Shown piece after piece: positions 3,285 through 47,732 of a stretch of DNA of 64,000 nt (the stretch's first letter is position 1; every line of letters begins with the position of its first letter). Position numbers and translations under genes: made by a program. The notes below the pieces were generated by a model. It was not told the DNA's origin, did no database searches, and was given only the letters and a program-made list of their open reading frames with translations. Origin of the DNA: Tubiluchus corallicola (taxonomy: Eukaryota; Animalia; Priapulida); the NCBI GenBank assembly GCA_030141605.1, contig JAQGDQ010000697.1:46850-110849 (forward strand), in the 5' to 3' direction.

Positions 3285-6200
3285 ATGAGGTCATACGATA
3301 CACTGCTGTATTTGAGTCTTTTCATGTTTGTTTCTTGTAAGTAAAACATTTAAAGAATAAAAAGTACTTTGGGTTTGTAGTAATGCAAGCAGTAATAAAA
3401 GTACTTTGAGTTTGTAGTAATGCAAGCACTAATAAAAGTACTTTGGGTTTGTAGTAATGCAAGCACTAATAAAAGTACTTTGGGTTTGTAGTAATGCAAG
3501 CAGTAATAAAAGTACTTTGAGTTTGTAGTAATGCATGCACTAATAAAAGTACTTTGAGTTTGTAGTAATGCAAGCACTAATAAAAATACTTTGGGTTTGT
3601 AGTAATGCAAGCAGTAATAAAAGTACTTTGAGTATGTAGTAATGCAAGCAGTAATAAAAGTACTTTGGGTTTGTAGTAATGCAAGCAGTAATAAAAGTAC
3701 TTTGAGTTTGTAGTAATGCAAGCAGTAATAAAAGTACTTTGAGTTTGTAGTAATGCAAGCAGTAATAAAAGTACTTTGAGTTTGTAGTAATGCAAGCACT
3801 AATAAAAGTACTTTGAGTATGTAGTAATGCAAGCAGTAATAATAGTACTTTGGGTGCATAGTAATGCAAGCAGTAATAAAAGTACTTTGAGTTTGTAGTA
3901 ATGCAAGCATTAATAAAAGTACTTTGAGTATGTAGTAATGCAAGCAGTAATAAAAGTACTTTGGGTGCATAGTAATGCAAGCAGTAATAAAAGTACTTTG
4001 AGTATGTAGTAATGCAAGCAGTAATAAAAGTACTTTGAGTATGTAGTAATGCAAGCAGTAATAAAAGTACTTTGAGTTTGTAGTCATGCAAGCACTAATA
4101 AAAGTACTTTGAGTTTGTAGTAATGCAAGCAGTAATAAAAGTACTTAGAGTTTGTAGTAATGCAAGCAGAAATAAATGTACTTTGAGTTTGTAGTAATGC
4201 AAGCAGTAATAAAAGTACTTTGAGTTTGTAGTAATGCAAGCAGAAATAAAAGTACTTTGAGTTTGTAGTAATGCAAGCAGTAATAAAAGTACTTTGAGTT
4301 TGTAGTAATGCAAGCAGTAATAAAAGTACTTTGAGTTTGTAGTAATGCAAGCAGAAATAAAAGTACTTTGAGTTTGTAGTAATGCAAGCAGTAATAAAAG
4401 TACTTTGGGTTTGTAGTAATGCAAGCAGTAATAAAAGTACTTTGGGTTTTAGTAATGCAAGCAGTAATAAAAGTACTTTGAGTTTGTAGTAATGCAAGCA
4501 GTAATAAAAGTACTTTGGGTTTGTAGTAATGCAAGCAGTAATAAAAGTACTTTGAGTTTGTAGTAATGCAAGCAGAAATAAAAGTACTTTGAGTTTGTAG
4601 TAATGCAAGCACTAATAAAAGTACTTTGAGTATGTAGTAATGCAAGCAGTAATAAAAGTACTTTGGGTGCATAGTAATTCAAGCAGTAATAAAAGTACTT
4701 TGAGTTTGTAGTAATGCAAGCATTAATAAAAGTACTTTGGGTGCATAGTAATGCAAGCAGTAATAAAAGTACTTTGAGTATGTAGTAATGCAAGCACTAA
4801 TAAAAGTACTTTGAGTATGTAGTAATGCAAGCAGTAATAAAAGTACTTTGGGTGCATAGTAATGCAAGCAGTAATAAAAGTACTTTGAGTATGTAGTAAT
4901 GCAAGCAGTAATAAAAGTACTTTGAGTATGTAGTAATGCAAGCACTAATAAAAGTACTTTGAGTTTGTAGTAATGCAAGCAGAAATAAAAGTACTTTGAG
5001 TTTGTAGTAATGCAAGCAGTAATAAAAGTACTTTGGGTTTGTAGTAATGCAAGCAGTAATAAAAGTACTTTGGGTTTTAGTAATGCAAGCAGTAATAAAA
5101 GTACTTTGAGTTTGTAGTAATGCAAGCGGTAATAAAAGTACTTTGAGTTTGTAGTAATGCAAGCACTAATAAAAGTACTTTAGGTTTGTAGTAATGCCAG
5201 CACTAATAAAAGTACTTTGAGTTTGTAGTAATGCAAGCAGTAATAAAAGTACTTTCAGTTTGTAGTAATGCAAGCAGTAATAAAAGTACTTTGAGTTTGT
5301 AGTAATGAAAGCAGTAATAAAAGTACTTTGAGTTTGTAGTAATGCAAGCAGTAATAAAAGTACTTTCAGTTTGTAGTAATGCAAGCAGTAATAAAAGTAC
5401 TTTGAGTTTGTAGTAATGCAAGCAGTAATAAAAGTACTTTGAGTTTGTAGTAATGAAAGCAGTAATAAAAGTACTTTGAGTTTGTAGTAATGCAAGCAGT
5501 AATAAAAGTACTTTGGGTTTGTAGTAATGCAAGCAGTAATAAAAGTACTTTGGGTTTTAGTAATGCAAGCAGTAATAAAAGTACTTTGAGTTTGTAGTAA
5601 TGCAAGCAGTAATAAAAGTACTTAGGGTTTGTAGTAATGAAAGCAGTAATAAAAGTACTTTGAGTTTGTAGTAATGCCAGCACTAATAAAAGTACTTTGG
5701 GTTTGTAGTAATGCCAGCACTAATAAAAGTACTTTGAGTTTGTAGTAATGCAAGCAGTAATAAAAGTACTTTGAGTTTGTAGTAATGAAAGCACTAATAA
5801 AAGTACTTTGAGTTTGTAGTAATGCAAGCAGTAATAAAAGTACTTTGAGTTTGTAGTAATGCAAGCAGTAATAAAACTAAGTTCATTATTATAAATATGC
5901 AGTTTACAAAATGAAATGTGTCATGACTGTGTGTTCGTAATTTGCTTTTTATTACAGTGGTTACAAGCTGGTCTCACTACCATTTCCAGTAGGCACTTTT
6001 GGTGCAACCCTTTCTCTTCGTAATACTTCTAATGTTTTCAGCCATTGCTTTCAGCTTGGCAACTTTTTGTTTTTTTCTTTTATCTATTTCTCTGGATCGA
6101 CTCCATATTTCCTTCTTAGCTACATCGCTTGTGACATGCACTCATTTAATTCAATAAGTTTATTGACATGATCGTTATATGTATATAATGTTTTATGTTA

Positions 6201-9200
6201 TATAGATGCAAACAAGTATATAATTCAATTTTATTATTTTTGATTAGTGATCGTCAGCTATAGTTTTTGGCTATAGGTTATAAAAGGCTGCAGATGGCAC
6301 TAAACAAGTACTCCTTTAGTAACCTGTCATTTGCCTGCTGCTTCTTGAGTTAGAACTTAAAGTACTTAGAGATACATAGTAGTATTGGTTCTAAAAGTTA
6401 CCACCAGGTTAGAATGATTATAACAGGTTGGCCGGATTCTTATTTCTAGACAAGCAGATCATATCTTTTTTAGTTCAGGCAAATGTTTTACATGGTCAAC
6501 AAAAATCTGAAAATTCATTTGTAGGCCTGTTGGTAATGGGACCAAAAACTTTCTTATTAAGATTTTGCTATAGCAAAACTTTCTGTTTTCATTGAGTTAT
6601 TTATTTATTTATTTTCCGCCAATTTAACGCTTAGTAACTCCTAAGTCTTGCAAGCTAGGGTCACCGAACTCGCAGGGTTGATACACAACTGTATAGCAAC
6701 TGCTGACCAATGGTCAAGGGGGAAGGACAGTGGGTGTTGGTCAATTTTTCCTTTATGATTCAACTCCGCTAGGGCTTTCGTTTTTTTCCAAATTTTTTTT
6801 CACAAGTATTTGGGTATTGTGGGGTAGATGTGCACCTGGGGTTTTAAAAAGCTGGTAAGATTTGGGGTCCCCCAATTTGTGACCTTTTACACGCTGAGTG
6901 CTAGGGACACAAAACTCACAGGGTACACTCTCTGGCAAAAGTTATATACGTATACGCGTGACCTGAGTCGCTGGGTCAAAGGTCACGGAGTGGTCGAGTC
7001 TTCGTTTATTTCTCTTTAGAATGCATAATTTTTGAGCTAGGGCGACAATATTTGGCATGTGGTTAAGTGGAGCCAAGTTGTTGGATATGGCAAAATATGG
7101 GTAATTTGGAGGGGTGAAAAATTTTCCACTAGGGGGCAAAAACCGAAAAATGGGGGTCGTGAACAGAAATGCATCGAGTGTCTATGAATACTACCATGTA
7201 GAACATCAAATAAAAGGTCTTGATGAGGCGAATCGAATGGTGTCAATTACAGTGGGAATCCTTAACCTGTGACCCAGTTAGGGGCAAAATAGGGGTCGAA
7301 GAGACAAATGCTTCCATGGTCTACCAAAAGCAGGTTGTTGTTATCAAATGAAAGGCCTCAATGAGACAAACTGAATGACTTAAGTTATGCCAAGGTTGTT
7401 GACCTTTGACCCGTGGGTGATGGGCTGAAGAGTTAAATGCTGAGGCTTCATTGTGAAATGCACTTTCCATGTATTCAAGCAATTCAATAAAAGAAAAGAG
7501 CATTTTTTAAAAAAGGCTGTCATCTCTTCATTTTTAAAGCTGAATTTTACAACTATTGTTTGCAAAATCTTCAGTTTCTGACCACTTCAGAAACATTGTT
7601 AGCTGGTTTATTTCCTTTCTATAACGAAAAGTCCTGTTATATAATTCATGTTTCCACAGAAATGTTCTTATTAGATTAAATACAGGCATTAGGTGAACCT
7701 TGCCTTAGTCACTTACCTTATCTTAGGTGTGACTGTCTCTAACTTAATCACGTTTGTCAGCTTGAGACTTGATGTCAACATGAGCTTCAATACATATAAG
7801 TTAAAATTTCCAAACCTGTGATTACTTGGTTAAACGCTTGATTTGCAGGTGTGCAGGATGAAACGCAAGCAACACCATTTGAACAAGAACCCGAGGATGT
7901 TGTTGCTCTTCCTGGAGATGATGTTGTGCTAACATGTGTGATAGAGAGCAATTATGTCCACAATGGTCACGGTGTTCTCTGGTTTCTTAATGGCAATCTG
8001 CAAGACATAGATGGTGAAAACTTCACGTATCTTGACATTGATGCTCCTACCAGTGGAGACTGGAGTATAAACGTTGTGAATATAAATGTAAATCAACGGG
8101 ATGGTTCATATCTCTGCCAGTATAGGCCATTTCAAGGCCAGGTGGAAAACGCACGTGAAGTAGAAGTTACTGTTGTTGGTAAGTATGTAAGACATTCTTA
8201 GTTACTTTTAATACTTTTGCTGAGTATTTTATTCAGAGCTTCTGATCTTTTGTGATCATGGAAAATGGACAGAATTCACATGGGCAACTGAAACAGCTGC
8301 GAAAAACAGAATTAGTCTGATTTAGTTTTCATTATTTATTCACTTAATTGTTGCTTAATTAATTCATTCATACTTGACTTAGTGTGTATAATATAGTAAT
8401 TTTTGTGTAGAAACGTTATCTCTGACGTGTTACTAGGAAATATTTGAAATTTTTGTTTATAAACTAATTTAAAGTCGTAATTATAATAGTTCCAGCAACT
8501 ATCAGTATGCTGCTGAATGATGTGCTACATGTGAAACCCTCGATTACAGTTGGAGCAGAAGACATCTCTAATCAGCTCAAATGTGAAGCCATAAGCAACT
8601 GCAAAGTTCTGCCAACCATAAGTTGGTTTATTGGTAATATCTTTCTAATTATTATATACTTTAATGATCTATGTAACTTATTCTGTTTTGATATAAATTA
8701 ATCATATAATATCATCATCATCATCATCATCACCACCTGACTAAGTTACTGCTTACATCAACACACACGCCATGCCAGCTTTTATCATATCCTTGTCACC
8801 AGCACCACCACTACTACAGTAGCCCTTACTTAAACTATATTAGAATATTTTTAAATAGATTATCGTTGACATAAAGGTAATATTAAGTGTACATTAGGTG
8901 CATTAAATCAAAGACCTATATATATGTCACATATTTTCTTGTTATCATCAGGTTATAATTTATATTACATGCAGGTTCAGCTCCTGTCAACTCTCGTTCA
9001 GAAACTATGCTGGATCTAAACACCAATTTTACTAATGTTGTGAGCACAATGGATGGTTATTCATTTAAACCTGAAGATAATGGAAAGCAGCTGACCTGTC
9101 AAGTTTTTATACATGACATTTTGTCAAAACAGTTTATTAACAGGACACTAAATGTACAATGTAAGTTAAATTTTTAGTAATCTATCTTACTGCTAGATGT

Positions 9201-11320
9201 GAGTAAAATATTCAGACAGAGTGTCCATGTTACAACAACCACATTAATAACACGTTTTAAACACTGTGTATTGAAGAAGTGTATGTAGCATGCTGCAAAT
9301 GACCTTGATGGGTCTGGGTCTTTTAGAATGAAAAAGTGAAGTAAAATTGAACAATAAATAAAAGTAACATTAAAATCAAAATTATTGTTAATGATGTTAC
9401 AAATCCACAATTTTTTAGTTTTGATGCCCAGGCTTTTCCTTTTTTCTTTGACTCTCTTTCTCTTTACCCTCTTTCCCTGTATCTCTCCTTCTGTCTTGTC
9501 TTGCATTCCTGCTATATTAGGAGATTCGTTTTTGATACAGATATTACATCTGTTACCGTGAAATTGCCTAACGGAGATGATACTAAGATTACAGTTGGCA
9601 GTGGCTTTGAGCTGATTTGTGATGCAAATGGGAACCCAGAACCTTCTTATCAGTGGAGTGGTCCTAATTTGTCAAGTGGAAACACCGGCAAAAAAGTTAC
9701 GAAGAAAAATGCGGAATTAGTTGATGGAGGGACATACACTTGTACAGCTAGGAATGCTGTTGGAGAGAGAAAAGGCAGCTTAACTATAAAAATTGTAAAG
9801 GAAGGTGGCAAAGAAGAAAACGGTGATAAAAATGGTGGTGGGGGATCTGGAGATGAAGATAATGGTGAGTGCATTGATTAAGGACCTAAGAGAATTAACC
9901 TTGCTAAAACACAGAAATGGTTGTTAGTTATGTAATAGTTTTGTTTCTGTTACCGGAGTGTCGTACATTTTCATTTGCGATTGATGATTGAAAGTACTAC
10001 TACCAATAATTAGACATGTGCTGGCACCTACATTTAAAATTGTTCATTTTTGTAGCTTAATTTAAGTTCAATGCAGAGAAAAAGAGTGAGATTGAATTAT
10101 TTTATATTAATTAATTAATTATGCACATCATATAATCAATAAGCACAACAAATTGTTTAACATTAAGTCCGTGCTTATACAATGTTGTAATATTAAGCAC
10201 ACTTGTTGTAATTAATGGTCAATGACATCAGCTGCCCTTTTTCCTAGAATCAATGTTAACAGCTGCGTCAGGGCAATGACTTCATAGTAAGAGCAATGAC
10301 CAGCTGCACACAGTTCTTAGAAACTGTTACAGGGCAATGCCTCACTGTGCTCATTTCCCTATTTCCTGGAAACAGTTATGACCAGATGTGTTCATTTCCC
10401 TATTTCCTGGATACAGTAAGGACCAGATGTGCTCATTTCCCTATTTCCGGGAAACGGTTATGACCAGATGTGCTTACTTCCTAGAAATAACCAAAAACCT
10501 GCATCCACTTCTTGGAAACAATCACGCCAGGGCAATGACTCACTGTGCTCTTTCCTCACTTCTAGGAAACAATTGCGTCAGGGCAATGGCTTCCTAGAAA
10601 GGGCAATGACCAGTTGCACAAAGTTCTTAGAAACTGTTACAGGACAATGACTCACTGTACTCATTTCCGTGTGTCCTGGATACAGTTATGACCAGTCATG
10701 CTTACTTCCTAGAAATAGCCTTTAACACCTGCATCCAGTTCTTGGAAACAGTCGCATCAGGGCAATGACTCACTTCTAGGAAACACCCTAGCAGCTGCAT
10801 AGTCCGGCCTATACAGGCAATTAGCAACAAAATGCTCTGACCAATAAGACTCAAGCTGACCACTGACCAGAACTTGGTTGACAGTATTCCTTTCAGATTA
10901 TTACAATTTTTTAAATTTTTTTTTAAACAAAGGGAGAATGAATGATGTTACGCAAAATATTTCTAAGAATTTTTTGATAAATCATAACCATAATAATATG
11001 TTGATAATGCAAAGAATTTTAACCTTGCAATTAAAATTAGCTTCGATGTATATTGATTATTAACGTTGTACTGCATTTTAAGTTTATTGATTCTAGCACT
11101 ATGCATTTGGGAGTTAACAGGAATTAAATAGTTGAAAATTGAATGCCTAACATCATGATGAAAAACCAGCATAAGGGGTGTAGCTCCTACATCTATGACT
11201 TTAGTCACAAGCACTAATGTTCTTTATTTTGTTTCAGGGCAAAATGGTTGCAATTTTCCGAGAAAGTTCTTGTTTGGACACGTTGTTATTCTCACTGTTA
11301 TTGTTTATTTTGTTAGATGA
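3285..11320 (+). CDS. IgSF gene 1: GPI-anchored 3-Ig cell-surface protein (V-like/C2-set/I-set; KIRREL/nectin/CADM/IgLON-like), about 372 aa
   Basis: Exons: 3285-3336 (MRSYDTLLYLSLFMFVS, signal peptide), 7849-8178 (V-like: FEQEPEDVVALPGDDVVLTC..W..DGSYLC), 8490-8633 and 8975-9160 (C2-set: LKCEA..ISW / EDNGKQLTC), 9541-9864 (I-set: LICDANGNPEPSYQW..DGGTYTC), 11238-11320 (GQNGCNFPRKFLFGHVVILTVIVYFVR*). All introns are GT-AG and phase 1; the exons sum to 1119 nt with an open frame. Confidence 0.88.
3357..5876. repeat. 37-bp minisatellite (about 68 copies) in intron 1 of IgSF gene 1
   Basis: Unit TAATAAAAGTACTTTGAGTTTGTAGTAATGCAAGCAG in head-to-tail array with point variants. Confidence 0.97.
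6555..7597 (+). mobile_element. Non-autonomous Helentron-type element (HINE/DINE-1-like)
   Basis: 5' subTIR AAGATTTTGC (6559) with adjacent inverted copy GCAAAACTT, then a (TATT)n microsatellite. The 3' subTIR GCAAAATCTT (7562) is followed by the stem-loop GTTTCTGA-ccact-TCAGAAAC. Absent from the paralogous introns. Confidence 0.6.
10241..10782. promoter_or_regulatory. Degenerate 41-bp repeat region with 12 TTCNNNGAA (STAT/GAS- or BCL6-type) motifs, last intron of gene 1
   Basis: Motifs at 10241, 10314, 10363, 10445 (TTCCGGGAA), 10478, 10509, 10560, 10591, 10624, 10706, 10739 and 10774. Function is inferred only. Confidence 0.45.
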
Positions 11321-12095
11321 GTCAGAATTTATGCTTAAACTTAAATGTATGTGATTTTAAAACTTTTGCATATTGTGTAAATATTTTTATCATTGTATGG
11401 AATATAATCATATAATCAATAAGCACAACAAATTGTTTAACATTAAGTCCGTGCTTATACAATGTTGTAATATTAAGCACACTTGTTGTAATTAATGGTC
11501 AATGACATCAGCTGCCCTTTTTCCTAGAATCAATGTTAACAGCTGCGTCAGGCCAATGACTTCCTAGAAAGAGCACTGTGCTCATTTCCCTGTTTCCTGG
11601 AAACAGTTATGACCAGATGTGCTCATTTCCCTACTTCCTGGATACAGTTATGACCAGATGTGCTCATTTCCCTACTTCCTGGATACAGTTATGACCAGAT
11701 ATGCTTACTTTCTAGAAATAACCGAAATCACCTGCATCCACTTCTTGGCTTGGTTGACAGCATTCCTTTCAGATTATTACAATTTTTCAATTTTTTTAAA
11801 CAAAGAGTGAACGAATTATGTAAAGTATTTCTAAGAATATTTTGATAAATCATAACCATTATACTATGTTGATAATGCAAAAAATTAAGCTTCGATGTAT
11901 ATTGATTATTAATGGTGCACTTGTCCCGGGACCTACATTTTAAGTTTATTGATTCTCTATGCATTTGGGAGTTAAGAAGAATTAAATAGTTGAAAATTGA
12001 ATGCCTAACATCATGATGAAAAACCAGCATAAGGGCTGTAGCTCCTACATCTATGACTTTAGTCACAAGCACTAACGTTCTTTATTTTGTTTCAG

Positions 12096-12178
12096 AGCAA
12101 AATGGTAGCAATTTTCCGAGAAAGTTCTTGTTTGGACACGTTGTTATTCTCACTGTTATTGTTTATTTTGTTAGATAA
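12096..12178 (+). CDS. Duplicated alternative terminal (GPI-signal) exon of IgSF gene 1
   Basis: Acceptor ttttgtttcag, phase 1; encodes EQNGSNFPRKFLFGHVVILTVIVYFVR*. It lies in a tandem copy (about 11407-12258) of about 10127-11401. Confidence 0.6.
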
Positions 12179-15258: not shown

Positions 15259-18200
15259 ATGAGGTCATACGATACACTGCTGCATTTGATTGTTTTCCTG
15301 TTCATTAACTGTAAGTAAAAACAAAAAATTATTTCTTAACGTCAGAAATAAAACTTCTAATCTGTAGTAATGCAAAGATTAACTAACGTTATTTCCTAGT
15401 TTCTCAGAAAAAAAATTTATATATATATATGTAATTATGTATTTATTTATAATTATGTATCTATGTATGTGTACTTGGTTATATGGTTCTATTTTTGAAA
15501 TCAATTCATTCATTACGCATACTAGCCGTAGCAGCTAAATCTAAATTTCTTATTTTTAAGTTTGTACTTTTTGCAGATGCATGGTGTGAATCACAATATT
15601 TTGAACAAGAACCTGAGGATGTTCCTACTCTTCCTGGAGATGACGTTGTGGTACAATGTGTAGTAAAAAGCGGGGTTCCACAAGGATATCAGTTTTCTTG
15701 GTTTCTTAATGAACAGTTCTTTGATCCAGACGCGGATGATAATTATGATTATATTGGCGGTCATCCTCCTAGCATTGGAAACTGGAGTATAAGAATTAAA
15801 AATGTAAATGTAAATCAACGTGATGGTTCCTATCACTGCCGAGTGTCAGTTATTGGTGAAGGATATGAAGATTCTAGCAAAGGAAAAGTAATTGTTGTTG
15901 GTAAGATTTTTAATTATCTTTTTTCAGTTTTTTAAATCTGTAATTATACATTTGACATTAAGCGTCTCTACAAAAAATGTAATTACATTTACATATCACA
16001 TGTTCAGATTTGATTTCTATGTATTAGAATCTGAGAGTTTGTAAGTTTAACAGAAGAAAGATAAAGTACAAATTGTCACAGTTTTGTAACACAGCACCTG
16101 CTGCTATGCTTCTACAGTTGATGATAATGTAGGAGCGGCTGTTGCTTTCTGCTCTACAGTGTGTATTAGCCCTATGTGCTAAAAAATTCAATTTTTAAAT
16201 TAGATGCTTCATATGTTAATTTTTGACTCTTTCTTTTTTAATTCTTGTGATAAAAGTTAAGTGTGAGTAAGGTTTAATGGTTTATTAACCTGGAAAATGA
16301 AATTTATTACTAGTTTAGACAAACGTAATTCACTGCGTTAGCAACAGCATGCCTACTAGTAGTAAATGCTGACAAGACAATGCTGTCACACTGTATATGG
16401 GTCACTTATGTGTACAAGTTGTAGAAGATGAGATAAAGTATGAAATGTCATAGAGAGTAGTGACACAATAGGTGCCCTGATGCATATTATTTTTTATTTA
16501 CCATCTATCACACATTATATGATTTGATAATAAAGATTAGTCCAAGGCCAAGAGTAGAAATGACCAGTTTTTACCCATATAGAGTAAGAGACAGTGACAG
16601 AGGCAAACAACTCCACAGTAGTATTGAGTCAATGGAAAGCTGCCATTATTATGGAGCAGGTCCTGAGTGCTCTTCATTGGCGTTCAGTCCTTATCTATTT
16701 AGACAACATCATAGTCTATGGCTGAACTTTTGAGAGTACCTCTCCCTCTTCCAGGAAGCCTTCGTGCACCTATAAAAAGCTGAGCTTAAATTAAATGCTA
16801 AAAAATGTCTTCTCACACAGAAAGAAGTTACTTACCTTTATTACATTGTTTCTTCTGATAGTGTCAAGACTGATCTTACTAAAACTGAAGCAGTTTATAA
16901 TTGGCCCCAACATCAAAACTTGAAGCAACTTTCGCAGACTGTGTACTTACTATAGGTGCTTTTTTACATTGCATCACATCACATCACTTTACATCGCATC
17001 ACTTCACTTCACATCGCATTACATCAAATCACATTGCATCACATCACATCATATCACTTCACTTCACATCACATCACACCGCATCATATTATATTACATA
17101 ATATTATTTAGTACCTGCCTAGTATTTTCACTACTAGTTCTACTTCCTTTCTCACTGTCTTTGTGTCTACTCTAGAAACTCTTCAGCCATTGCTCATGAG
17201 ACTAGACCTGAAACAAGATTACACTGTGATTATTCAGCTATTTTGCTTTTCTCTGGATGCTTTTTTTCTTTTCCCTTTGTATTTTTTTCTTCATTTATCC
17301 TAATTCATATTTCAGCTGGGGGTATTTGATTTAGCTTTCATTATTTATTCACTTAATTGTTGCTTAATTAATTCATTCATACTTGACTTAGTGTGTATAA
17401 TATAGTAACTGTTGTGTAGAAACGTTATCTCTGACGTGTATCTAGGAAATATTTGAAAATGTGTTTATGAACTAATTTAAAGTCGTAATTATAATAGTTC
17501 CAGCAAATATTAGAATGCTGCTGAATGATGTGCTACATGTGAAACCCTCGATTATAGTTGAAGCAAAAGACATCTGTAATCAGCTCAAATGTGAAGCCAT
17601 AAGCAACTGCAAAGTTCTGCCAGCCATAAGTTGGTTTATTGGTAATATCTTTCTAATTATTATATACTTTAATGATCTATGTAACTTATTCTGTTTTGAT
17701 ATAAACTAATCATATCATATCATCATCTTCATCATCACCACCCGACTGAGTTACTGCTTACATCAACACACACACCATGCCAGCTTTTATCTTATCCTTG
17801 TCACCAGCACCACCACTACTACAGTAGCCCTTACTTAAACTATATTAAAATATTTTTAAATAGATTATCGTTGACATAAAGGTAATATTAAGTGTACATT
17901 AGGTGCATTAAATCAAAAACCTATTTATACGTCACATATTTTCTTGTTATCATCAGGTTATAATTTATATTACATGCAGGTTCAGCTCCTGTCAACTCTA
18001 GTTCAGAAACTATGCTGGATCTAAACACCAATTTTACTAATGTTGTGAGCACAATGGATGATTATTCATTTAAACCTGAAGATAATGGAAAGCAGCTGAC
18101 CTGTCAAGTTTTTATACATGACATTTTGTCAAAACAGTTTATTAACAAGACACCAAATGTACAATGTAAGTTAAATTTTTATTAATCCATCTTACTGCTA

Positions 18201-21200
18201 GATGTAAGTAAAATTTTCAGACAGAGTGTCCATGTTACAACAACCACATTAGGAACACGTTTTAAACACTGTGTATTGAAGAAGTGTATGTAGCATGCTG
18301 CAAATGACCTTGATGGGTCTGGGTCTTTTAGACTGAAAAAGTGAAGTAAAATTGAACAATAAATAAAAGTAGAATTATGTATGCATAATCATATATCTGT
18401 ATATCCTCACTTAGTTATAATATTCTATTTTTAAATTCAATTGATTCATTACACATATTAGCAATAGCAGCAAAATCTGAATTCCTTATTTTCAAGTTTG
18501 TGTTTTTTGCAGATGTGCGGAGTGAATCACAATATTTTGAACAAGAACCTGAGGATGTTCCTACTCTTCCTGGAGATGACGTTGTGGTACATTGTGCAGT
18601 AAAAAGTGAGGTTCTACAAGTTCCACAAGGATATGCATTAGTTTGGTTTCTTAATAACCAGTTCGTTGATCCATACGCAGATGATAACTATTATTATATT
18701 AACAGTGATCATCTTAACACTGGAAACTGGAGTATAAAGATTAAGGATGTAAATGTAAATCAACGTGATGGTTCCTATCACTGTAAAGTGACAGTTTATG
18801 GTCCAGGAGGAGGAAGTGAAGATTCTCGCAAAGGAGAAGTAATTGTTGTCGGTAAGATTTTTAATTATCTCATCTCAGTTTTTTAAAATCAGTAATTATA
18901 CAATTTGACATTAAACGCTTCTACAGAAAATGTAATTAAATTTACATATCATATGTTCAGATTTCATTTCTGTGTATTAGAGGTTAAGAGTTTCAGAGGA
19001 GGAAGATAAAGTCACAGTTTTGTAACACAACACCTGCTGTGATGCATCTACAGTTAATGATAAAATAGGATCAGCTTTTGCTTTCTCCTTTACAGTGTGT
19101 ATTAGTAGTATTTCTAAAAAAATTTTAATTTTTAAAGTAAATAGTTTGTATGTTAGTTTTTTCCTCTTTATTAATTTTTGTGATAAAATTAAGTGTGAGT
19201 ATAGGAGTACAGTGTAATGGTTCAATTACTTAGAAAATAAAATCAATTAATATTTTAGACAAATGTAATTCATTGCATTAGTGACCACATGCCTACTAGT
19301 AGTAAATGCTGACAAGACAATGCTGTCACACTGTATATTGGTCACTTATGTGTACAAGTTGTAGAAGCTGAGATAAAGTATGAAATGTCATAGAGAGTAG
19401 TGACACAATAGGTGACCTGATGCATATTATTTTTTATTTACCATCTATCACACATTATATGATTTGATAATAAATATTAGTCCAAGGCCAAGAGTAGTTT
19501 TTACCCATATAGAGTAACAGACGGTGACAGCGGCAAACAACTCTGTAGTAGTATTTGGTCAATGGAAAGCTGCCATTATTATGGAGCAGGTCCTGAGTGC
19601 TCTTCATTGGCGTTCAGTCCTTATCTATTTAGACAACATCATAGTCTATGGCTGAACTTTTGAGAGTACCTCTCCCTCTTCCAGGAAGCCTTCGTGCACC
19701 TAGAAAAAGCTGAGCTTAAATTAAATGCTAAAAAATGTCTTCTCACACAGAAAGAAGTTACTTACCTTTATTACATTGTTTCTTCTGATAGTGTCAAGAC
19801 TGATCTTACTAAAACTGAAGCAGTTTATAATTGGCCCCAACATCAAAACTTGAAGCAACTTTCGCAGACTGTGTACTTACTAGAGGCGCTTTTTTTACAT
19901 CGCATCACTTCACTTCACATCGTATTACATTAGATCACATTGCATCACTTCACATCACTTCACATTGCATCACATTACATCACTTCACATCGCATCACTT
20001 CACATCGCATCACATCACATCACATCGCATCATATTATATTACATAATATTATTTAGTACCAGCCTAGTATTTCCACTACTAGTTCTACTTCCTTTCTCA
20101 CTGTCTTTGTGTCTACTCTAGAAACTCTTCAGCCATTGCTCATGAGACAAGACCTGAAACAAGATTACACTGTGATTATTCAGCAATTTTGCTTTTCTCT
20201 GCATGCTTTTTTCTTTTCCTTTTTTATTTTTTTCTTCATTTATCCTAATTCATATTTTAGTTAGGGCAAGTTGATTTAGTTTTCATTATTTATTCACTTA
20301 ATTGTTGCTTAATTAATTCATTCGTATCTGACTTAGCGTGTATAATATAGTAACTGTTGTGTAGAAACGTTATCTCTGACGTGTATCTAGGAAATATTTG
20401 AAAATGCGTTCATGAACTAATTTAAAGTCATAATTATAATAGTTCCAGCAACTATCAGTATGCTGCTGAATGATGTGCCACATGTGAAACACTCGATTAC
20501 AGTTGAAGTAGAAGACATCTCTAATCAGCTCAAATGTGAAGCCATAAGCAACTGCAAAGTTCTGCCAACCATAAGTTGGTTTATTGGTAATATCTTTCTA
20601 ATTATTATATACTTTAATGATCTATGTAACTTATTCTGTTTTGATATAAATTAATCATATCATATCATCATCTTCATCATCACCAGCTAACTAAGTTACT
20701 GCTTACATCAACACACATGCCATGCCAGCTTTTATCATATCCTTGTCACCAGCACCACCTTACTACAGTAGCCCTTACTTAAACTATATTAAAATATTTT
20801 TAAATAGATTATCATTGACATAAAGGAAATATTAAGTGTACATTAGGTGCATTAAATCAAAAACCTATTTATACGCCACATATTTTCTTGTTATCATCAG
20901 GTTATAATTTATATTACATGCAGGTTCAGCTCCTGTCAACTCTCGTTCAGAAACTATGCTGGATCTAAACACTAATTTTACTAATGTTGTGAGCACATTG
21001 GATGATTATTCATTTAAACCTGAAGACAATGGAAAACAGCTGACCTGTCAGGTTTTTATACATGACATTTTGTCAAAACAATTTATTTACAGGACACTAA
21101 ATGTACAATGTAAGTTAAATTTTTATTAATCTATGTTACTGCTAGATGTAAGTAAAATTTTCAGACCGAGTGTTCATGTTACAACCACCACATAAGGAAC

Positions 21201-23246
21201 ACGTTTTAAACACTGTGTATTGAAGAAGTGTATGTAGCATGCTGCAAATGACCTTGATGGGTCTGGGTCTTTTAGAGTGAAAAAGTGAAGTAAAATTGAA
21301 CAGTAAATAAAAGTAACATTAAAATCAAAATTATTGTTAATGATGTTACAAATCCACAATTTTTTAGTTTTGATGTCCAGGCTTTTCTTTTTTTCTTTGA
21401 CTCTCTTTCTATTTATCCTCTTTCCCTGTATCTCTCCTTCTGTCTTGTCTTGCATTCCTGCTATATATAAGGAGATACGTTTTTGATACAGATATTACAT
21501 CTGTTACCGTGAAATTGCCCAATGGAGATGATACTAAGATTACAGTTGGCAGTGGCTTTGAGCTGATTTGTGATGCAAATGGGAACCCAGAACCTTCTTA
21601 TCAGTGGAGTGGTCCTAATTTGTCAAGTGGAAACACCGGCAAAAAAGTTACGAAGAAAAATGTGGAATTAGTTGACGGAGGGACATACACTTGTACAGCT
21701 AGGAATGTTGTTGGAGAGAGAAAGGGCAGCTTAACTATAAAAATTGTAAAAGAGGGTGACAAGGAAGAAAGCGGTGATAAAGAAAATGGTGGTGGGGGAT
21801 CTGGAGATGGGGATAATGGTAAGTGCATTGATTAAGAACCTAAGAGAATTAACCTTGCAAAAACACAGAAGTGGTTGTTAGTTATGCAATAGTTTTGTTT
21901 CTGTTACCGGAGTGTCGTACATTTTCATTTGCGATTGATAACTGAAAGTACTACTACCAATAATTAAACATGTGCTGGCACCTACATTTAAGATTGTTCA
22001 TTTTTGTAACTTAATTTAAGTTTAATGAAGAGTGATAGAGTGAGATTGAATTATTTTATATTAAATAATTAATTATGCACATCATATAATCAATAAGCTC
22101 AACAAATTGTTTAACATTAAGTCCATTTTTATACAATGTTGTAATATTAAGCTCACTTGTTGTAATTAATGGTCAATGATATCAGCTGCCCTTTTTCCTA
22201 GAATCAATGTTAACAGCTGCGTCAGGGCAACGGCTTTCTAGAAAGAGCAATGACCAGCTGCACACAGTTCTTAGAAACTGTTACAGGGCAATGAATCACT
22301 GTACTCATTTCCGTATGTCCTGGATACAGCAATGACCAGATGTGCTCATTTCCCTACTTCCTGGTAACAGTAATGACCAGATGTGCTCATTTCCCTATTT
22401 CCTGGATACAGGTATGGCCAGATGTGCTCATTTCCCTACTTCCTGGAAACAGTAATGACCAGATGTGCTCATTTCCCTATTTCCTGGATACAGTTATGAC
22501 CAGATGTGCTCATTTCCGTATGTCCTAGAAACAGCAATGACCAGTTGTGCTCATTTCCCTATTTCCTGGATATAGTTACGACCAGATGTGTTCATTTCCC
22601 TATTTCGTGGTTACAGCAACGACCAGTTGTGCTTACTTCCTAGAAATAGCCATTAACACCTGCATCCAGTTCTTGGAAACCGTCGCATCAGGACAAAGAC
22701 TCACTCCTAGGAAACACCCTAGCAGCTGCATAGTCCTGCCTATACAGCCAATCAGCAACAAAATGCTCTGACCAATAAGACTCAAGCTGACCACTGACCA
22801 GAACTTGGTTGACAGTATTCCTTTCAGGTTATTACAATTTTTTAATTTTTTTAATCAAAGAGAGAACGAATGATGTTACGTAAAGTATTTCTAAGAATTT
22901 TTTGATAAATCATAACCATTATACTATGTTGATAATGCAGAGAATTAATTAGCTTCAATGTATATTGATTATTAATGGTGTACTTGTCCTGGGACCTACA
23001 TTTTAAGTTTATTGATTCTAGCCCTTTGCATTTGGGAGTTAAGAAGAATTAAATAGTTGAAAATTGAATGCCTAACATCAATGATGAAAAACCAGCATAA
23101 GGCCTGTAGCTCCTACATCTGTGAGTTTAGTTACAAGCATTAATGTTCTTGATTTTGTTCCAGGACAAAATGGTTGCAATTTTCCGAGAAAGACCTTGTT
23201 TGGACACGTTGTTATTCTCACTGTTATTGTTCATTTTATTAGATGA
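15259..23246 (+). CDS. IgSF gene 2: V-C2-V-C2-I-GPI (about 594 aa if all exons are used), or alternative V-C2 cassettes on a shared leader and stalk
   Basis: Exons: 15259-15310 (leader MRSYDTLLHLIVFLFIN), 15577-15900 (V2), 17498-17641, 17980-18165, 18513-18851 (V3), 20443-20586, 20924-21109, 21492-21818 (I-set), 23164-23246 (GPI signal). All GT-AG and phase 1; 1785 nt open. Confidence 0.82.
16651..16930 (+). mobile_element. Ty3/Gypsy reverse transcriptase fragment (intronic, degenerate)
   Basis: MEQVLSALHWRSVLIYLDNIIVYG*TFE..LKLNAKKC..KEVTYL..IVSSDSVKTD..KTEAVYNWP; YLDD has become YLDN, with stop and frameshift. A (CACAT/CACTT)n run follows. Confidence 0.8.
19581..19862 (+). mobile_element. 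Ty3/Gypsy RT fragment, copy 2
   Basis: Near-identical to 16651-16930, in the same V-C2 intron position. Confidence 0.8.
22190..22720. repeat. 41-bp intronic tandem repeat, gene 2 paralogous copy
   Basis: Unit TGTGCTCATTTCCCTATTTCCTGGA(A/T)ACAGTTATGACCAGA; includes several TTCNNNGAA motifs. Confidence 0.85.
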
Positions 23247-24083: not shown

Positions 24084-24320
24084 TTACTGCGAGTTGTTGA
24101 CACATTTCAGTCGATGATTGCAGAGACCTACGCGAACAGAACAAGATCTTCCAAGGTTAGTGCACTGAAATGCTGAAGCATCTTTGGTACGATTCTTTCT
24201 TCTTTGACGCTTCTCTTCCCATAGTAGCTGAAGCCTATCTTCATTGTGCTTCACCACATCAAACAATGGCTTCCGCCAAGTTTCCCCGTCTGAAGTTGCT
24301 GCTTCCAGTTTTTGGCAATT
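24084..24320 (-). mobile_element. RTE-clade LINE 3' fragment (paralogous copy carried by the duplication)
   Basis: Same fragment as 13011-13400, in the equivalent intergenic position. Confidence 0.7.
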
Positions 24321-25862: not shown

Positions 25863-28800
25863 ATGAGGTCATACCATACACTGCTGCATTTGATTGTTTT
25901 CCTGTTCATTAACTGTAAGTAAAAACAAAAAATTATTTCTTAATGTCAGAGATACTTTTACTCTATAGTAATGCAAAGAAAATCTAGTTACATTATTTAC
26001 CAGTTTCTCAGAAACATTGTATTTCAGTGCACAATTCCAAGTGATAATTTAAAACTCTAAACATTTGATTTGTTGCAATTATCATAATACTACATGGTTC
26101 CACATATTTTCGCTCCTCCCTGTAGTATTATGTGCAGTTACACATTACTTGAGAGGATAATTTAAATGCCAAATACCCATTTTGGAAAGCTTATTTTGTG
26201 TTAGCACACCACAAACAATTTCAGTAGAAGCAATTAAACTCAAACGTCGTCAACACTACACACAAACAACAAAAGGAGACAAACAACTGCAAATCATTCA
26301 TTCTACAACGGCACACACATACAAAATTACCACCAACAGAAAAAGGTCATCAGGTGAAATTCAGATTACTGTTCCTACTCACTATCTTCAACCTCCATTC
26401 AACTCAATGGATGAAATACAAGAACTATGCAGTTAAAATCAGCACCTAATCAATTATACCATTTTCCTCCTAAGCAAAATTACGTTGTTGGAAAGTTTGT
26501 GTAAAACTCTGCTCATGGTAACAGTTGCTCTTTGTTGATGCAACGCCTGTTAAACTCTCATTCTAATTTATCTTTTTTTCAATTTCTTTTTATTAAATTC
26601 CTTATGTATGTAAAGCTTCTCATATTTTTACCAAAACCTTGTGAAAGTTTTAAAGTTTAATTGTGTTTCATTAACTATGAAAATAAAATTAATTGCTACT
26701 AATACTATGCAATTATTAAGTTTAATTACTATTTTAGACATACATAGTTCACTGCAGATAGTGGTCATATGCTTGCTACTGCAGCAGAGAATGTGAACCG
26801 ACAAAGTAATGCTGTCACACTGTACACATGTTACTTATATGTACAATTTATATGACATACCTGTTTACATTTATATATATTGTACTGCAGGGCTGTGATG
26901 AAATAGTGTAATGCTGGCAGGGGAATACAGCAGACTTCTCAGGTGTGCGTGTGAACGTGGCTTTAACTAGCACCTAGACTCTTATTCTGACCTTGTGTTA
27001 GTGGGAGCCACTAGTCACGTGCACACCTGAGCTTATAAAAAGGGAAGGTCTGCTGTAGATCCTTGTCAGTGGTCGTCTCATCTCAGCTCTGTTCACACTT
27101 CAGGCTTTGCTCTATTCGGTAACCTTTTTGGAATATTTTTTTTTGGTAATAAATTGTCATTTTTATTTTATTGTTCATTTTGGTTTTTGGTTTTGGCATC
27201 GACCTACTTGAGACATACCGCACGGTGTAGGTCGCGGTGCCATCCGTTCTGCCTCCATTAAAAGTGGAGAGCAGTCCATTATATATATTATGTATGCATA
27301 ATCATATATCTGTATATGCTCACTTGGTTATAATATTCTATTTTTCAATTCAGTTGATTCATTACACATATTAGTCGTAGCAGCAAAATCTAAATTTCTT
27401 ATATTTAAATTTGTATTTTTTACAGATGTACGAAGTGAATTACAATATTTTGAACAAGAACCTGAAGATGTTGCTACTCTTCCTGGAGAAAACGTTGTGG
27501 TACAGTTTGTAGTAAAAAGCGAGGTTCCACTAGGATATCAGTTTTTTTGGTTGCTTAACGACCAGATCATTGATGCAAACGTGGATGATAACTATACTTT
27601 TATTAACAGTAATCCTTATAACACTAGAAACTGGAGTATAAAGATTAAAGATGTAAACTTAGATCAACGTGATGGTTCCTATAACTGCCGAGTGAATGTT
27701 TTTGGTGAAGGAGGAGGAACTGATGAGTCAAACAAAGGAAATGTAACTGTTGTTGGTGAGTCAGTATTTTTAATTACCACTTTTCAATTTTTTAAATAAA
27801 TCAGTAATTATACAAGTTGACATTAATCTGTACAATATGATGTATTGTAATTACATTTACATTTACATATGATATGTTCAGATTTGATTTCCGCATATTA
27901 GATAATAAGAGTTTGTAAGTTTTACAGAAGGAAGTTAAAGTATGAATTGTCACAGTTTTGTAACACAACACCTGCTGTGATGCATCTACAGTTGATGATG
28001 ATATAGAATCAGCTTTTGCATTCTCGTTTGTATTGTTCATTAGTACTATTTTCCAAAAAGTTTTAATTTTTAAAGTAGATGCTTCAATTGTTAGTTTTTG
28101 TCTTTATCAATTTTTGTTGTAAAATTTAAGATGTGAGTAAAGTTTAGAGGTTCATTAACCTGGAAAATGAAATTTATTACTAGTTTAGACAAACGTAATT
28201 CCACTGCGTTAGCGACAGCATGCCTACTAGTAGTAAATGCTGACAAGACAATGCTGTCACACTGTATATGTGGGTCACTTATGTGTACAAGTTGCAGAAG
28301 TTGAGATAAAGTATGAAATGTCATAGAGAGTAGTGACACAATAGGTGCCCTGATGCATATTATTTTTTATTTACCATCTATCACACATTATATGATTTGA
28401 TAATAAAGATTAGTCCAAGGCCAAGAGTAGAAATGACCAGTTTTTACCCATATAGTGTAAGAAACAGTGACAGCGGTAAACAACTCTGCAGTAGTATTGA
28501 GTCAATGGAAAGCTGCCATTATTATGGAGCAGGTCCTGAGTGCTCTTCATTGGCGTTCAGTCCTTATCTATTTAGACAACATCATAGTCTATGGCTGAAC
28601 TTTTGAGAGTACCTCTCCCTCTTCCAGGAAGCCTTCGTGCACCTAGAAAAAGCTGAGCTTAAATTAAATGTTAAAAAATGTCTTCTCACACAGAAAGAAG
28701 TTACTTACCTTTATTACATTGTTTCTTCTGATAGTGTCAAGACTGATCTTACTAAAACTGAAGCAGTTTATAATTGGCCCCAACATCAAAACTTGCAGCA

Positions 28801-31800
28801 ACTTTTGCAGACTGTGTACTTACTAGAGGCGCTTTTTTACATTGCATCACTTCACATCACTTTACATCGCATCACTTCACATCACATCACATCACATTCC
28901 ATCACTTCATATCACTTCACATCACTTTACATCACATCACATTACATTGCATCATATTATATTACATAATATTATTTAGTACCAGCCAAGTATTTTCACT
29001 ACTAGTTCTGCTTCCCTTCTCATTGTCTTTGTGTCTACTCTAGAAACTCTTTAGCCATTGCTCATGAGACTAGACCTGAAACAAGATTACACTGTGATTA
29101 TTCAGCTATTTTGCTTTTCTCTGGACGCCTTTTTCTTTTCTTTTTGTATTTTTTTCTTTATTTATCCTAATTCATATTTTAGCAAGGGGTATTTGATTTA
29201 GTTTTCATTATTTATTCACTTAATTGTTGCTTAATTAATTCTTTCATATCTGACTTAGTGTATATAATATAGTAACTGTTGTGTAGAAACGTTATCTCTG
29301 ACGTGTATCTAGGAAATATTTGGAAATTTTGTTTATGAACTAATTTAAAGTCGTAATTATAATAGTTCCAGCAAATATTAGAATGCTGCTGAATGATGTG
29401 CCACATGTGAAACCCTCGATTACAGTTGAAGTAGAAGACATCTCTAATCAGCTCAAATGTGAAGCCAAAGGCAACTGCAAAGTTCTGCCTACCATAAGTT
29501 GGTTTATTGGTAATATCTTTCTAATTATTATATACTTTAATGATCTATGTAACGTATTCTGTTTTGATATAAATTAATCATATAATATCATCATCATCAT
29601 CATCATCATCACCACCTGACTAAGTTACTGCTTACATCAACACACACTCCATGCCAGCTTTTGTCATATTCTTGTCACCAGCACCACCACTACTACAGTA
29701 GCCCGTACTTAAACTATATTAAAATATTTTTAAATAGATTATCGTTGACATAAAGGAAATATTGTGTATGTTAGGTGCATTAAATCAAAAACCTATGTAT
29801 ACGTCACCTATATATCATCAGGTTATAATTTATATTACATGCAGGTTCAGCTCCTGTCAACTCTCGTTCAGAAACTATGCTGGATCTAAAAACCAATTTT
29901 ACTCATGTTGTGAGCACAATGGATGATTATTCATTTAAACCTGAAGATAATGGAAAGCAGCTGACCTGTCAAGTTTTTATACATGACATTTTGTCAAAAC
30001 AGTTTATTAACAGGACACTAAATGTACAATGTAAGTTAAATTTTTATTAATCTATCTTACTGCTAGATGTAAGTAAAATTTTCAGACCGAGTGTCCATGT
30101 TACAACAACCACATTAGGAACACGTTTTAAACACTGTGTATTGAAGAAGTGTATGTAGCATGCTGCAAATGACCTTGATGGGTCTGTGTCTTTTAGAATG
30201 AAAAAGTGAAGTAAAATTGAACAATAAATAAAAGTAACATTAAAATCAAAATTATTGTTAACGATGTTACAAATCCACAATTTTTTAGTTTTGATGTCCA
30301 GGCTTTTCTTTTCTTCTTTGACTATCTTTCTCTTTACCCTCTCGCCCTGTATCTCTCCTTCTGTCTTGTCTTGCATTCCTGCTATATATTAGGAGATTCG
30401 TTTTTGATACAGATATTACATCAGTTACCGTGAAATTGCCTAATGGAGATGATACTAAGATTACAGTTGGCAGTGGCTTTGAGCTGATTTGTGATGCAAG
30501 TGGAAACCCAGAACCTTCTTATCAGTGGAGTGGTCCTAATTTGTCAAGTGGAAACACCGGCAAAAAAGTTACGAAGAAAAATGCGGAATTAGTTGATGGA
30601 GGGACATACACTTGTACAGCTAGGAATGTTGTTGGAGAGAGAAAAGGCAGCTTAACTATAAAAATTGTAAAGGAAGGTGACAAAGAAGAAAGTGGTGATA
30701 AAGAAAATGGTGGTGGGGGATCTGGAGATGGGGATAATGGTAAGTGCATTGATTAAGGACCTAAGAGAATTAACCTTGCAAAAACACAAAAATAGTTGTT
30801 AGTTATGTAATAGTTTTGTTTCTGTTACCGGAGTGTCGTACATTTTCATTTGCGATTGATAACTGAAAGTACTACTACCAATAATTAGACATGTGCTGAC
30901 ACCTACAATTAAGATTGTTCATTTTTGTAACTTAATTTAAGTTTAATGAAGAGTGATAGAGTGAGATTGAATTATTTTATATTAATTAATTATGCACATC
31001 ATGTGATTAATAAGCACAACAAATTGTTTAACATTAAGTCCATTCTTATAAAATGTTGTAATATTAAGCACATTTGTTATAATTAATGATCAATGACATC
31101 AGCTGCCCTTTTTCCTAGAATCAATGTTAACAGCTGCGTCAGGACAATGGCTTCCTAGAAAGAGCAATGACCAGCTGCACACAGTTCTTAGAAACTGTTA
31201 CAGGGCAATGCCTCACTGTGCTCATTTCCCTGTTTCCTGGAAACAGTTATGAACAGATGTGCTCATTTCCCTATTTCCTGGAAACAGTTATGACCAGATG
31301 TGCTCATTTCCCTACTTCCTGGATACAGTTATAACCAGATGTACTGATTTCCCTACTTCCTGGAAACAGTTATGACCAGATGTACTCATTTCCCTATTTC
31401 CTGGATACAGTTATGACCTAGTTATGACCAGATGTACTGATTTGCCTACTTCCTGGATACAGTTATGACCAGATGTACTGATTTCCCTACTTCCTGGATA
31501 CAGTTATAACCAGATGTACTGATTTCCCTACTTCCTGGAAACAGTTATGACCAGATGTACTCATTTCCCTATTTCCTGGATACAGTTATGACCTAGTTAT
31601 GACCAGATGTACTGATTTGCCTACTTCCTGGATACAGTTATGACCAGATGTACTGATTTCCCTACTTCCTGGATACAGTTATGACCAGATGTACTCATTT
31701 CCCTATTTCCTGGATACAGTTATGACCAGATATGCTTACTTTCTAGAAATAACCGAAATCACCTGCATCCACTTCTTGGCTTCGTTGACAGCTTTCCTTT

Positions 31801-32224
31801 CAGATTATAATTTTTCAAATTTTTTTAAACAAAGAGTGAACGAATTATGCAAAGTAATTCTAAGAATTTTTTGATAAATCATAAAAAATAAACAAATTAA
31901 TACTATGTTGATAATGCAAAGAATTAATTAGCTTCAATGTATATTGATTACTAATGGTGTACTGATCCTGGGACCTACATTTTAAGTTTATTGATTCTAG
32001 CCCTTTGCATTTGGGAGTTAAGAAGAATTAAATAGTTGAAAATTGAATGCCTAACATCATGATGAAAAACCAGCATAAGGCCTGTAGCTCCTACATCTAT
32101 GACTTTATTCACAAGCACTAATGTTCTTTATTTTGTTTCAGGACAAAATGGTTGCAATTTTCCGAGAGCGTTCTTGATTGGACACGTTGTTATTCTCACT
32201 GTTATTGTTCATTTTGTCAGATGA
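25863..32224 (+). CDS. IgSF gene 3: GPI-anchored 3-Ig protein, about 373 aa, V domain with B-strand Cys replaced by Phe
   Basis: Exons: 25863-25914 (leader), 27426-27755 (V4), 29366-29509, 29845-30030, 30413-30739, 32142-32224 (GQNGCNFPRAFLIGHVVILTVIVHFVR*). All GT-AG and phase 1; 1122 nt open. Confidence 0.85.
26907..27275 (+). mobile_element. Probable LTR (Gypsy-like) in intron 1 of gene 3
   Basis: Starts TGTAATG and ends CATTAAA (one mismatch from CATTACA), followed by PBS-like AGTGGAGA. Contains TATAAAA (about 27034) and AATAAA (about 27148); GC-richer than the flanks; absent from gene 2 intron 1. Confidence 0.5.
28524..28803 (+). mobile_element. Ty3/Gypsy RT fragment, copy 3
   Basis: Near-identical to 16651-16930, in the same V-C2 intron position. 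Confidence 0.8.
31110..31750. repeat. 41-bp intronic tandem repeat, gene 3 paralogous copy (expanded)
   Basis: Same unit as in genes 1 and 2 with more copies. Confidence 0.88.
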
Positions 32225-42085: not shown

Positions 42086-42129
42086 CGATGACATCTATTA
42101 TCTACTCAAGTTAATGTTACAAGAAAGAT

Positions 42130-47720: not shown

Positions 47721-47732
47721 CCTCAACTGAAC

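Follow-up and report, generated by a model that had tools for sequence, protein, structure and literature searches.

How a receptor family comes to carry widely differing tips on nearly identical stalks is the question raised by a gene cluster of the priapulid Tubiluchus corallicola. The cluster lies in a window of 64,000 nucleotides (GenBank assembly GCA_030141605.1, contig JAQGDQ010000697.1, positions 46,850 to 110,849 of the forward strand), which is the whole stretch of DNA analysed and to which all coordinates below refer. It contains three tandem immunoglobulin (Ig) genes, A, B and C, with predicted glycosylphosphatidylinositol (GPI) anchors. With moderate confidence, sequence comparison and structural modelling suggest that their V-type tip domains, which resemble the first domain (D1) of Kirrel, pair through the face formed by strands G, F and C (GFC face) under likely diversifying selection, with gene conversion homogenising the stalks. 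The genes likely represent an undescribed, lineage-specific and fast-changing recognition family, for which a role in immunity or self-recognition is a candidate only.

Under this reading, exchange between neighbouring copies would homogenise the C2, I-set and GPI exons together with their introns. Selection would act against any conversion tract that overwrote a V binding face, so that divergence would accumulate in the V exons and the linked intron. Each V domain would have a binding specificity of its own, presented on a common stalk without a tail, and the receptors would act in adhesion or as decoys, signalling through a partner. By analogy with CEACAM, whose dimer face is bound by microbial adhesins, the most likely driver would be biotic conflict acting on the same face.

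Diversified Ig recognition families occur in vertebrates (CEACAM), cnidarians (Alr) and arthropods (Dscam, Dpr/DIP). The literature searched, with most subscription papers and supplements outside its scope, contained none for priapulids. Here the predicted fold of conserved wiring receptors appears in a short, tailless, fast-evolving family, and the locus offers a clean invertebrate case of a divergence island apparently held against gene conversion. Signals of conversion, selection and predicted binding converge on one face, pointing to specific residues for a binding test.

Variable tip domains and their predicted pairing face

The four V-like exons of the initial annotation (V1 to V4) start exactly at 7849, 15577, 18513 and 27426, although they feed the stalks of three genes, not four. 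Its count of V2/V3 differences is reproduced, at 29 of 107 residues plus two in-frame indels; V2 and V4 differ at 40/107 residues and V3 and V4 at 38/109, while V1 differs from the other V exons at 54/104, 56/107 and 63/106. The Cys-Trp-Cys pin is complete in V1 to V3, and one Cys is lost in V4. Amino-acid change is concentrated at outward positions of strands C and F and in the BC, DE and FG loops. The variable-loop sequences quoted earlier all occur in V1 to V4; the one described as a mid-domain loop is indeed variable but corresponds to the D-E loop, and the model has no C'' strand (DSSP, with the strand lettering our own).

Codon models, run in our own implementation, point to selection on this surface. 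Model M2a fits better than M1a for V2 to V4 (p=0.026) and for all four exons (p=0.009), placing about a quarter of sites in a positive class with a dN/dS ratio (omega) of 4.5 and 3.7, respectively; the observed likelihood ratio was reached in 0/79 null simulations. The top sites alternate on strands C (38, 40) and F (88, 90, 92; V2 numbering) and point away from the core residues Trp41 and Cys87. Core-facing positions of the two strands are nearly fixed among V2 to V4, whereas outward ones vary. A rule-based set of outward GFC and tip-loop sites, drawn after the M2a results were known, has an omega of 2.05 against 0.56 (above 1, p=0.028). The early proposal that change is concentrated on the GFC face and tip loops therefore holds, with dN/dS of about 2 at those sites, and moderate evidence indicates that the predicted binding face is likely under diversifying selection.

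Structural modelling assigns this surface a possible function. V3, built from an 18-row alignment, was modelled with a predicted local distance difference test score (pLDDT) of 95.5, superseding an earlier and poor V2 model (pLDDT 66.5) whose fold search gave no match at E<=0.001. The top Foldseek match for V3 is Duf (4ofi; E 4.9e-7, template-modelling (TM) score 0.74), and the top VIA-align match is Rst (4of8; Z 14.2, root-mean-square deviation 1.8, 98 aligned), followed by Kirrel2, SYG-1 and Neph1 at Z 13.2-13.3 and by other I-set domains from 13.0 downwards. In the model, the tip domain folds like Kirrel D1, with other I-set domains within about 1-2 Z, and its closest folds are homodimerising adhesion receptors (Kirrel/Neph/SYG-1).

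A two-copy V3 prediction made without a custom alignment scored 0.59 against 0.01 for the best control, with 100% agreement of contacts and a pLDDT of 93. In the benchmark for this score, 21/30 solved pairs and 0/23 single chains pass; the figures for eukaryotes are 17/29 pairs and 0/30 single chains, and for animals 7/16 pairs. The predicted interface comprises 27 residues in BC, C, C', DE, F and FG. Among V2 to V4 its omega is 2.18 (above 1, p=0.023), compared with 0.65 for the other residues (p=1.3e-5 for the difference). It includes 9/15 top M2a sites (p=0.0015). Once mapped onto the structure model, as the initial annotation had proposed, most of the top variable sites thus fall on the predicted GFC dimer face.

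Divergence islands in a probably homogenised background

An island of high divergence, about 0.9 kb long, spans each V exon and its flanking introns in units 2 to 4. Among these units the polymorphic fraction is 0.25 in the 130 nt upstream of V, 0.22 in the V exon (75/339) and 0.26 over 439 nt of the following intron, then 0.03 in mid-intron and 0.05-0.09 across the stalk, whose introns are as alike as its exons. Polymorphic sites number 144/569 in island introns against 84/1490 in stalk introns (Fisher p=6e-33), a contrast weakened by bins that were set after the sliding window had been viewed, with the CATCA repeat (40/200) excluded. The near-identity of long introns claimed at the outset thus applies to the stalk introns, while those beside V are as divergent as the V exons.

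Comparison with unit 1 separates the history of the stalk from that of the tip. V1 has a synonymous divergence (dS) of 0.66-0.70 to V2 to V4, yet the stalk introns of its unit differ by only 3-8%. Informative sites across the four stalks back all three pairings, 6/4/3, in blocks, and a 13-site run is common to the V2 and V4 units (p=0.0002 by permutation, against p=0.54 and 0.13 for the remaining two pairs). The old divergence of V1, the similarity of the stalk introns and the conflicting pairings together indicate that stalk likeness reflects recent DNA sharing. Gene conversion likely keeps the stalks nearly identical, and the islands match the pattern expected from conversion combined with divergent selection. 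A divergence peak in a converted background is a published signature of selection, as described in the available text of PMC3924837.

At the protein level, the stalk is less uniform than first described. Among units the I-set exon differs at only 2-5 of 107-108 residues, in line with a near-invariant stalk, but the first half of C2 differs at 4-9/47 and the second at 3-5/61. Of the stalk exons, only the I-set exon is clearly under purifying selection (omega 0.17, p=0.0004); for the C2 halves omega is 2.7 and 0.46, both non-significant. An "invariant" stalk held by constraint is therefore not borne out, and recent DNA sharing accounts for it more than protein constraint does. In relatives from the public sequencing runs X5 and X6 the start of C2 is divergent, which limits stalk identity to this cluster. 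Beyond its B-strand Cys, the first half of C2 (8490-8633 and its copies) also has a further Cys that is absent from relatives, with one more in unit 2; it could form an inter-chain link.

Two other explanations of the pattern were set aside, together with one apparent proof of conversion. Local hypermutation is ruled out, as transitions make up 77/135 changes in island introns and 47/81 in stalk introns, without C>T or G>A skew. An assembly artefact is likewise ruled out: the stalks of the units differ by 2-10%, and the S1 runs hold pieces of the V2 and V3 regions with 0-1 differences, although S1 may be the source sample of the assembly and the gene B junction lies outside that read support. 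The identical V2/V3 run reported at about 68 nt exists and measures 70 nt, the longest between these exons. It exceeds position shuffles (p=0.0007), but given identical residues a run of this length without silent change has P=0.17, so that alone it is no proof of conversion and framework conservation can explain it.

A weak reverse-transcriptase fragment (Pfam RVT_1, E 0.04) adjoins a (CATCA)n repeat at 16734-17090, 19664-20045 and 28607-28950, in the part of the units that is most homogenised, and conversion might be seeded by the repeat.

Several points weigh against selection on a pairing face. Over the whole V exon, omega is 0.90 for V2 to V4 and 0.68 for all four, and no pairwise V dN/dS is significantly above 1. 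Without columns within two of an indel (95 columns), M2a gives p=0.11, and with V1 included the interface omega is 1.66 against 0.54 (above 1, p=0.07). The tests draw on 3-4 sequences and one reused data set with uncorrected p values, and they assume one tree, an assumption that conversion breaks. In the dimer benchmark only 1/7 eukaryotic pairs without an older solved relative passed; because Kirrel D1 homodimers are already solved, the V3 pass may reflect those known structures. V4 has Phe in place of the B-strand Cys, which leaves its F-strand Cys unpaired in an otherwise intact frame. In addition, the GPI assignment is based on hydropathy only, the spliced contig of run X6 described below is a relative (about 79-89% identity in matched parts) and not genes A to C, and no evidence ties these genes to microbes.

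Part of this evidence would fit neutral turnover, which appears unlikely though far from negligible. The V islands would then simply be the older portion of the duplicates, the remainder having been reset recently by conversion or unequal crossing-over, and surface residues would drift under relaxed constraint as copies near loss. The whole-exon omega, the M2a result away from indels and the equal divergence of V exons and flanking introns are compatible with such drift, and the V4 Cys loss, the fused gene B and a duplicated last exon look like structural churn. The initial annotation had held that V divergence matching the introns, at a dN/dS well below 1, would speak against selection; the divergence does match, but dN/dS is about 0.9. 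Drift is harder to reconcile with frames and splice sites that are all intact, with core-facing C and F positions near-fixed in V2 to V4 while outward ones vary, with an interface omega above 1, and with three islands centred on the same exon.

Gene models and sequencing-run evidence

Exon edges were set by script after six-frame translation, self-BLAST and reading of 2.5-34 kb. Self-BLAST and six-frame translation reveal four repeated units on the + strand in AT-rich sequence, forming three intact tandem genes. Signal-peptide and I-set exons number three each, V exons and last exons four each, and there are four C2 domains of two exons apiece. Every exon is phase 1 with AG/GT edges, and the joined models are open to the stop (A 373 aa, B 594 aa, C 373 aa). 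Genes A and C follow the order signal peptide-V-C2-I-GPI, and gene B the order signal peptide-V2-C2-V3-C2-I-GPI.

3285..3336, +, gene A signal-peptide exon (ATG; phase-1 donor)
3360..5876, 37-bp tandem array in gene A intron 1, 68 copies
7849..8178, +, gene A exon V1, the most divergent tip domain (dS ~0.7 to V2-4)
8490..8633, +, gene A C2 first half
8975..9160, +, gene A C2 second half
9541..9864, +, gene A I-set exon and Gly/acidic linker
11238..11320, +, gene A last exon, predicted GPI signal (hydropathy only)
12096..12178, +, locally duplicated, open second copy of gene A last exon (alternative 3' end possible)
15259..15310, +, gene B signal-peptide exon (relative in run X6 spliced across the intron)
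15577..15900, +, gene B exon V2
17498..17641, +, gene B first C2, first half
17980..18165, +, gene B first C2, second half
18370..18380, junction of C2-to-I intron and V-upstream intron, giving V-C2-V-C2-I
18383..19290, V3 divergence island, 22-26% of sites polymorphic in units 2-4 (V2 and V4 have equivalents)
18513..18851, +, gene B exon V3 (structure model at pLDDT 95.5; homodimer predicted)
19291..19880, most homogenised intron stretch, 3.4% polymorphic (weak reverse-transcriptase fragment, adjoins (CATCA)n repeat)
20443..20586, +, gene B second C2, first half
20924..21109, +, gene B second C2, second half
21492..21818, +, gene B I-set exon and linker
23164..23246, +, gene B last exon, predicted GPI signal
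25863..25914, +, gene C signal-peptide exon
27426..27755, +, gene C exon V4 (Phe at the B-strand Cys position)
29366..29509, +, gene C C2 first half
29845..30030, +, gene C C2 second half
30413..30739, +, gene C I-set exon and linker
32142..32224, +, gene C last exon, predicted GPI signal

Gene B holds both V2-C2 and V3-C2 through a 2.94 kb internal repeat. At its junction, near 18370-18380, the C2-to-I intron abuts sequence resembling the region upstream of V4, from which we infer a deletion that fused two neighbouring genes. Since all exons are phase 1, skips yielding V2-C2-I or V3-C2-I are predicted to stay in frame.

Pfam gives weak V-set/Ig matches for V1 to V4, clear I-set/Ig matches for the third domain and no match for either C2 half; the C2-set label of the second domain is taken from relatives. 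In each tail a small-residue site is followed, after a short spacer, by a hydrophobic stretch with a mean hydropathy of 2.4-2.5 over 15 residues that reaches to one residue short of the stop, a profile that fits a predicted GPI signal. A simple scan found no membrane-helix-like exon in 9865-15258, 21819-25862 or 30740-40000, and tblastn found no further Ig exon, leaving three Ig domains per unit.

Around the last exons, a local duplication at 11407-12260 gives gene A its second copy, in which a Cys near the predicted anchor site is changed to Ser. Like the last exons of genes B and C, this copy is followed by poly(A)-type signals near +290 and +640, while the earliest such signal after the first copy is at +661. 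The I-to-GPI intron of each gene contains a 41-bp minisatellite of 3-12 copies (10346-10481, 11577-11705, 22300-22640 and 31217-31731).

Six public runs (X1-X6) were compared, none on record as RNA, which says nothing either way about expression; that X6 is RNA is a guess. X6 matches only the signal-peptide and V parts at >=80% identity. In one of its contigs, of 1013 nt, a signal-peptide exon runs into a V exon across a net skip of 266 nt, which equals the first intron of gene B in length; from the V end the contig passes directly into C2-like sequence unlike that of the window. Such a contig backs the exon model at the level of the family and does not show that genes A to C are expressed; the splicing sought by the initial annotation is thus seen from signal peptide to V in a relative from a putative RNA run, not in the genes themselves.

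Runs X1-X5 hold V-like pieces absent from the window; one V1-like contig, for instance, carries 44 differences over 269 nt. Among the matches listed (40 of 246 difference rows), a V4-like variant present in both X3 and X4 shares 19/26 listed letters with V4 and has five found in no window V, all at residues 62-69 from the DE loop to the E strand. These further variants indicate that the family is larger than four V types. In X4, summed contig depth over 9241-10334 and 21275-22368 (the I-set exon and next intron) is far above that of neighbouring bins; it was not used as evidence, since contig depth is no copy number and more members or uneven coverage are possible.

Such variants would also suit a self/non-self or gamete identity code, in which each V binds its own type across cells, as in Hydractinia Alr2, and new homophilic specificities are favoured. 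This seems improbable, a little more so than neutral drift. The predicted homodimer face is the variable face, and the novel letters of the X3/X4 variant all fall between the DE loop and the E strand. Set against this, alleles are indistinguishable from paralogs in these runs, a signalling tail is missing and the defining features of Alr are absent. Priapulids are solitary, and for that reason colony fusion provides no context. The C/C' face of Alr2 is likewise under diversifying selection, according to the accessible part of PMC8282982.

Elsewhere in the window, dense unrelated minisatellite arrays with periods of 28-92 bp lie downstream of the cluster (33486-48494), and four long frames scanned at 37-44 kb gave no convincing Pfam match. 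An acidic, Ser-rich open frame at 52250-52858 (-) gives the impression of a transposase N-terminus, with no Pfam match. A full-length 5S rRNA match (Rfam RF00001, 92 bits) stands beside a (CA)n repeat at 62601-62719 (+).

Relatives and comparison with known systems

An exhaustive hidden Markov model (HMM) search returned 76 matches at E<=0.001. The nearest whole-protein matches are V-C2-I proteins with 22-34% identity over the multi-domain match, mostly unnamed Logan records together with Priapulus caudatus XP_014675978.1 (P0033, "cell adhesion molecule 3-like"). In a 19-row tree the window genes, eight Logan modules (six proteins) and P0033 form one clade (100/98), and two amalgam/IgLON-like rows, both long-branched, fall across a 100/97 branch. 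A clade of the window genes with three Kirrel rows (P0037, P0066, P0061) is rejected by the approximately unbiased (AU) test (p=0.0013; 19 rows, long branches); we ourselves labelled P0061, P0060 and P0015 as Kirrel and P0073 as IgLON-like. The proposal of a lineage-specific family withstands these tests, with Kirrel orthology rejected and the nearest relatives only distantly similar. Over word-index candidates, the V profile found close homologues in 0/5536, the I-set profile hit 3/2067, all scallop hemicentin-like proteins, and the family profile hit 12/7990, with only P0033 itself relevant; an Atlas look-up returned generic Ig clusters only.

P0033 and the Logan proteins P0010, P0026, P0013, P0004, P0034 and P0039 share the V-C2-I module at 23-34% identity and bear automatic names only, with no function. 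Their C-termini differ from those of the window genes. In P0026 the module is linked to a C1q domain and no membrane helix is obvious, an arrangement that recalls mollusc Ig-plus-effector proteins. P0013 and P0004 have a doubled module and a likely membrane helix, and P0039 ends in a tyrosine-rich tail, unlike the tailless window genes, although by our reading its tyrosines do not fit the immunoreceptor tyrosine-based inhibitory motif (ITIM) consensus. If of the same lineage, these three Logan relatives are possible signalling partners. A bolder proposal, about as improbable as the identity code, is a priapulid immune or self-recognition system of Kirrel-D1-like domains in which many V specificities would sit on a conversion-kept stalk, gene B would yield up to three in-frame receptors by skipping, and GPI members would serve as decoys or partners for the tyrosine-tail or C1q relatives.

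The predicted fold raises one more alternative, a neuronal wiring or cell-sorting code like Kirrel2/3 or Dpr/DIP, whose paralogs diverge to avoid cross-binding. The Kirrel-D1 fold, three Ig domains and predicted GPI anchor fit wiring-receptor architecture, and Kirrel paralogs do diverge at the dimer face. Rapid turnover, protein searches without a close relative and runs under the same species label that are mostly <95% alike argue otherwise, and Kirrel duplications outside vertebrates are called rare (both statements on Kirrel paralogs as given in excerpts of PMC8628261). A wiring code is accordingly rated lower still than the identity code. For the preferred reading, diversification of a pairing face over converted stalks, four known systems provide the closest comparisons.

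The Kirrel/Neph/IRM/SYG-1 family (Duf 4ofi, Rst 4of8, Neph1 4ofd, Kirrel2 7ltw, Kirrel3 7lu6) has its tip fold in common with the window V domains, along with the V-C2-I start; a GFC-face dimer is predicted for V3 as well, but that prediction may reflect solved Kirrel dimers. D1 domains of the Duf/Rst/Neph1/SYG-1 type dimerise on the CFG face, as stated in available passages of PMC8628261 and PMC6525511. Kirrels have five Ig domains, a membrane helix and a signalling tail, whereas the window genes have three Ig domains per unit, no tail and no helix-like exon in the scanned stretches, are tandem and fast-evolving, and are rejected as part of a joint clade. Wirins (Dpr/DIP, IgLON, Lachesin, ZIG-8/RIG-5) resemble the window genes in having 2-3 Ig domains, a hydrophobic C-terminus and no tail. 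They are mostly tailless GFCC' dimers with a conserved hydrophobic interface core, in the portion of PMC6525511 available; unlike theirs, the second domain in relatives of the window genes is of the CD80-like C2 type.

CEACAM offers likeness in evolutionary mode: its genes are clustered in tandem and evolve in concert, selection keeps conversion out of Ig exons, and the N-terminal binding face is diversified. Some CEACAMs are GPI-anchored, microbial adhesins bind the CEACAM GFCC' face, and the CEACAM N domain lacks the B-F disulfide. Three of the four window V domains keep this disulfide, and homology beyond the Ig fold is not established. The Ig exons of CEACAM32 escape conversion, according to the accessible text of PMC7042247. 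Hydractinia Alr1/Alr2 are likewise clustered invertebrate members of the Ig superfamily, with a diversifying domain-1 face and exon shuffling by conversion. Alr domains lack the Cys pin, are encoded by one exon each and are followed by an Fn3-like spacer, a membrane helix and a tail, as described in parts of PMC9546547 and PMC8282982; the window genes differ in the Cys pin of V1 to V3, a C2 domain spread over two exons, and the lack of a spacer domain or tail.

The VCBPs of amphioxus and Ciona are secreted proteins with two V domains and a chitin-binding domain, a domain that the window gene models lack. The window genes thus depart from Kirrel, Alr, CEACAM and VCBP alike in defining features of each. 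By analogy, the system would work like CEACAM or Alr and is built like a truncated, tailless Kirrel.

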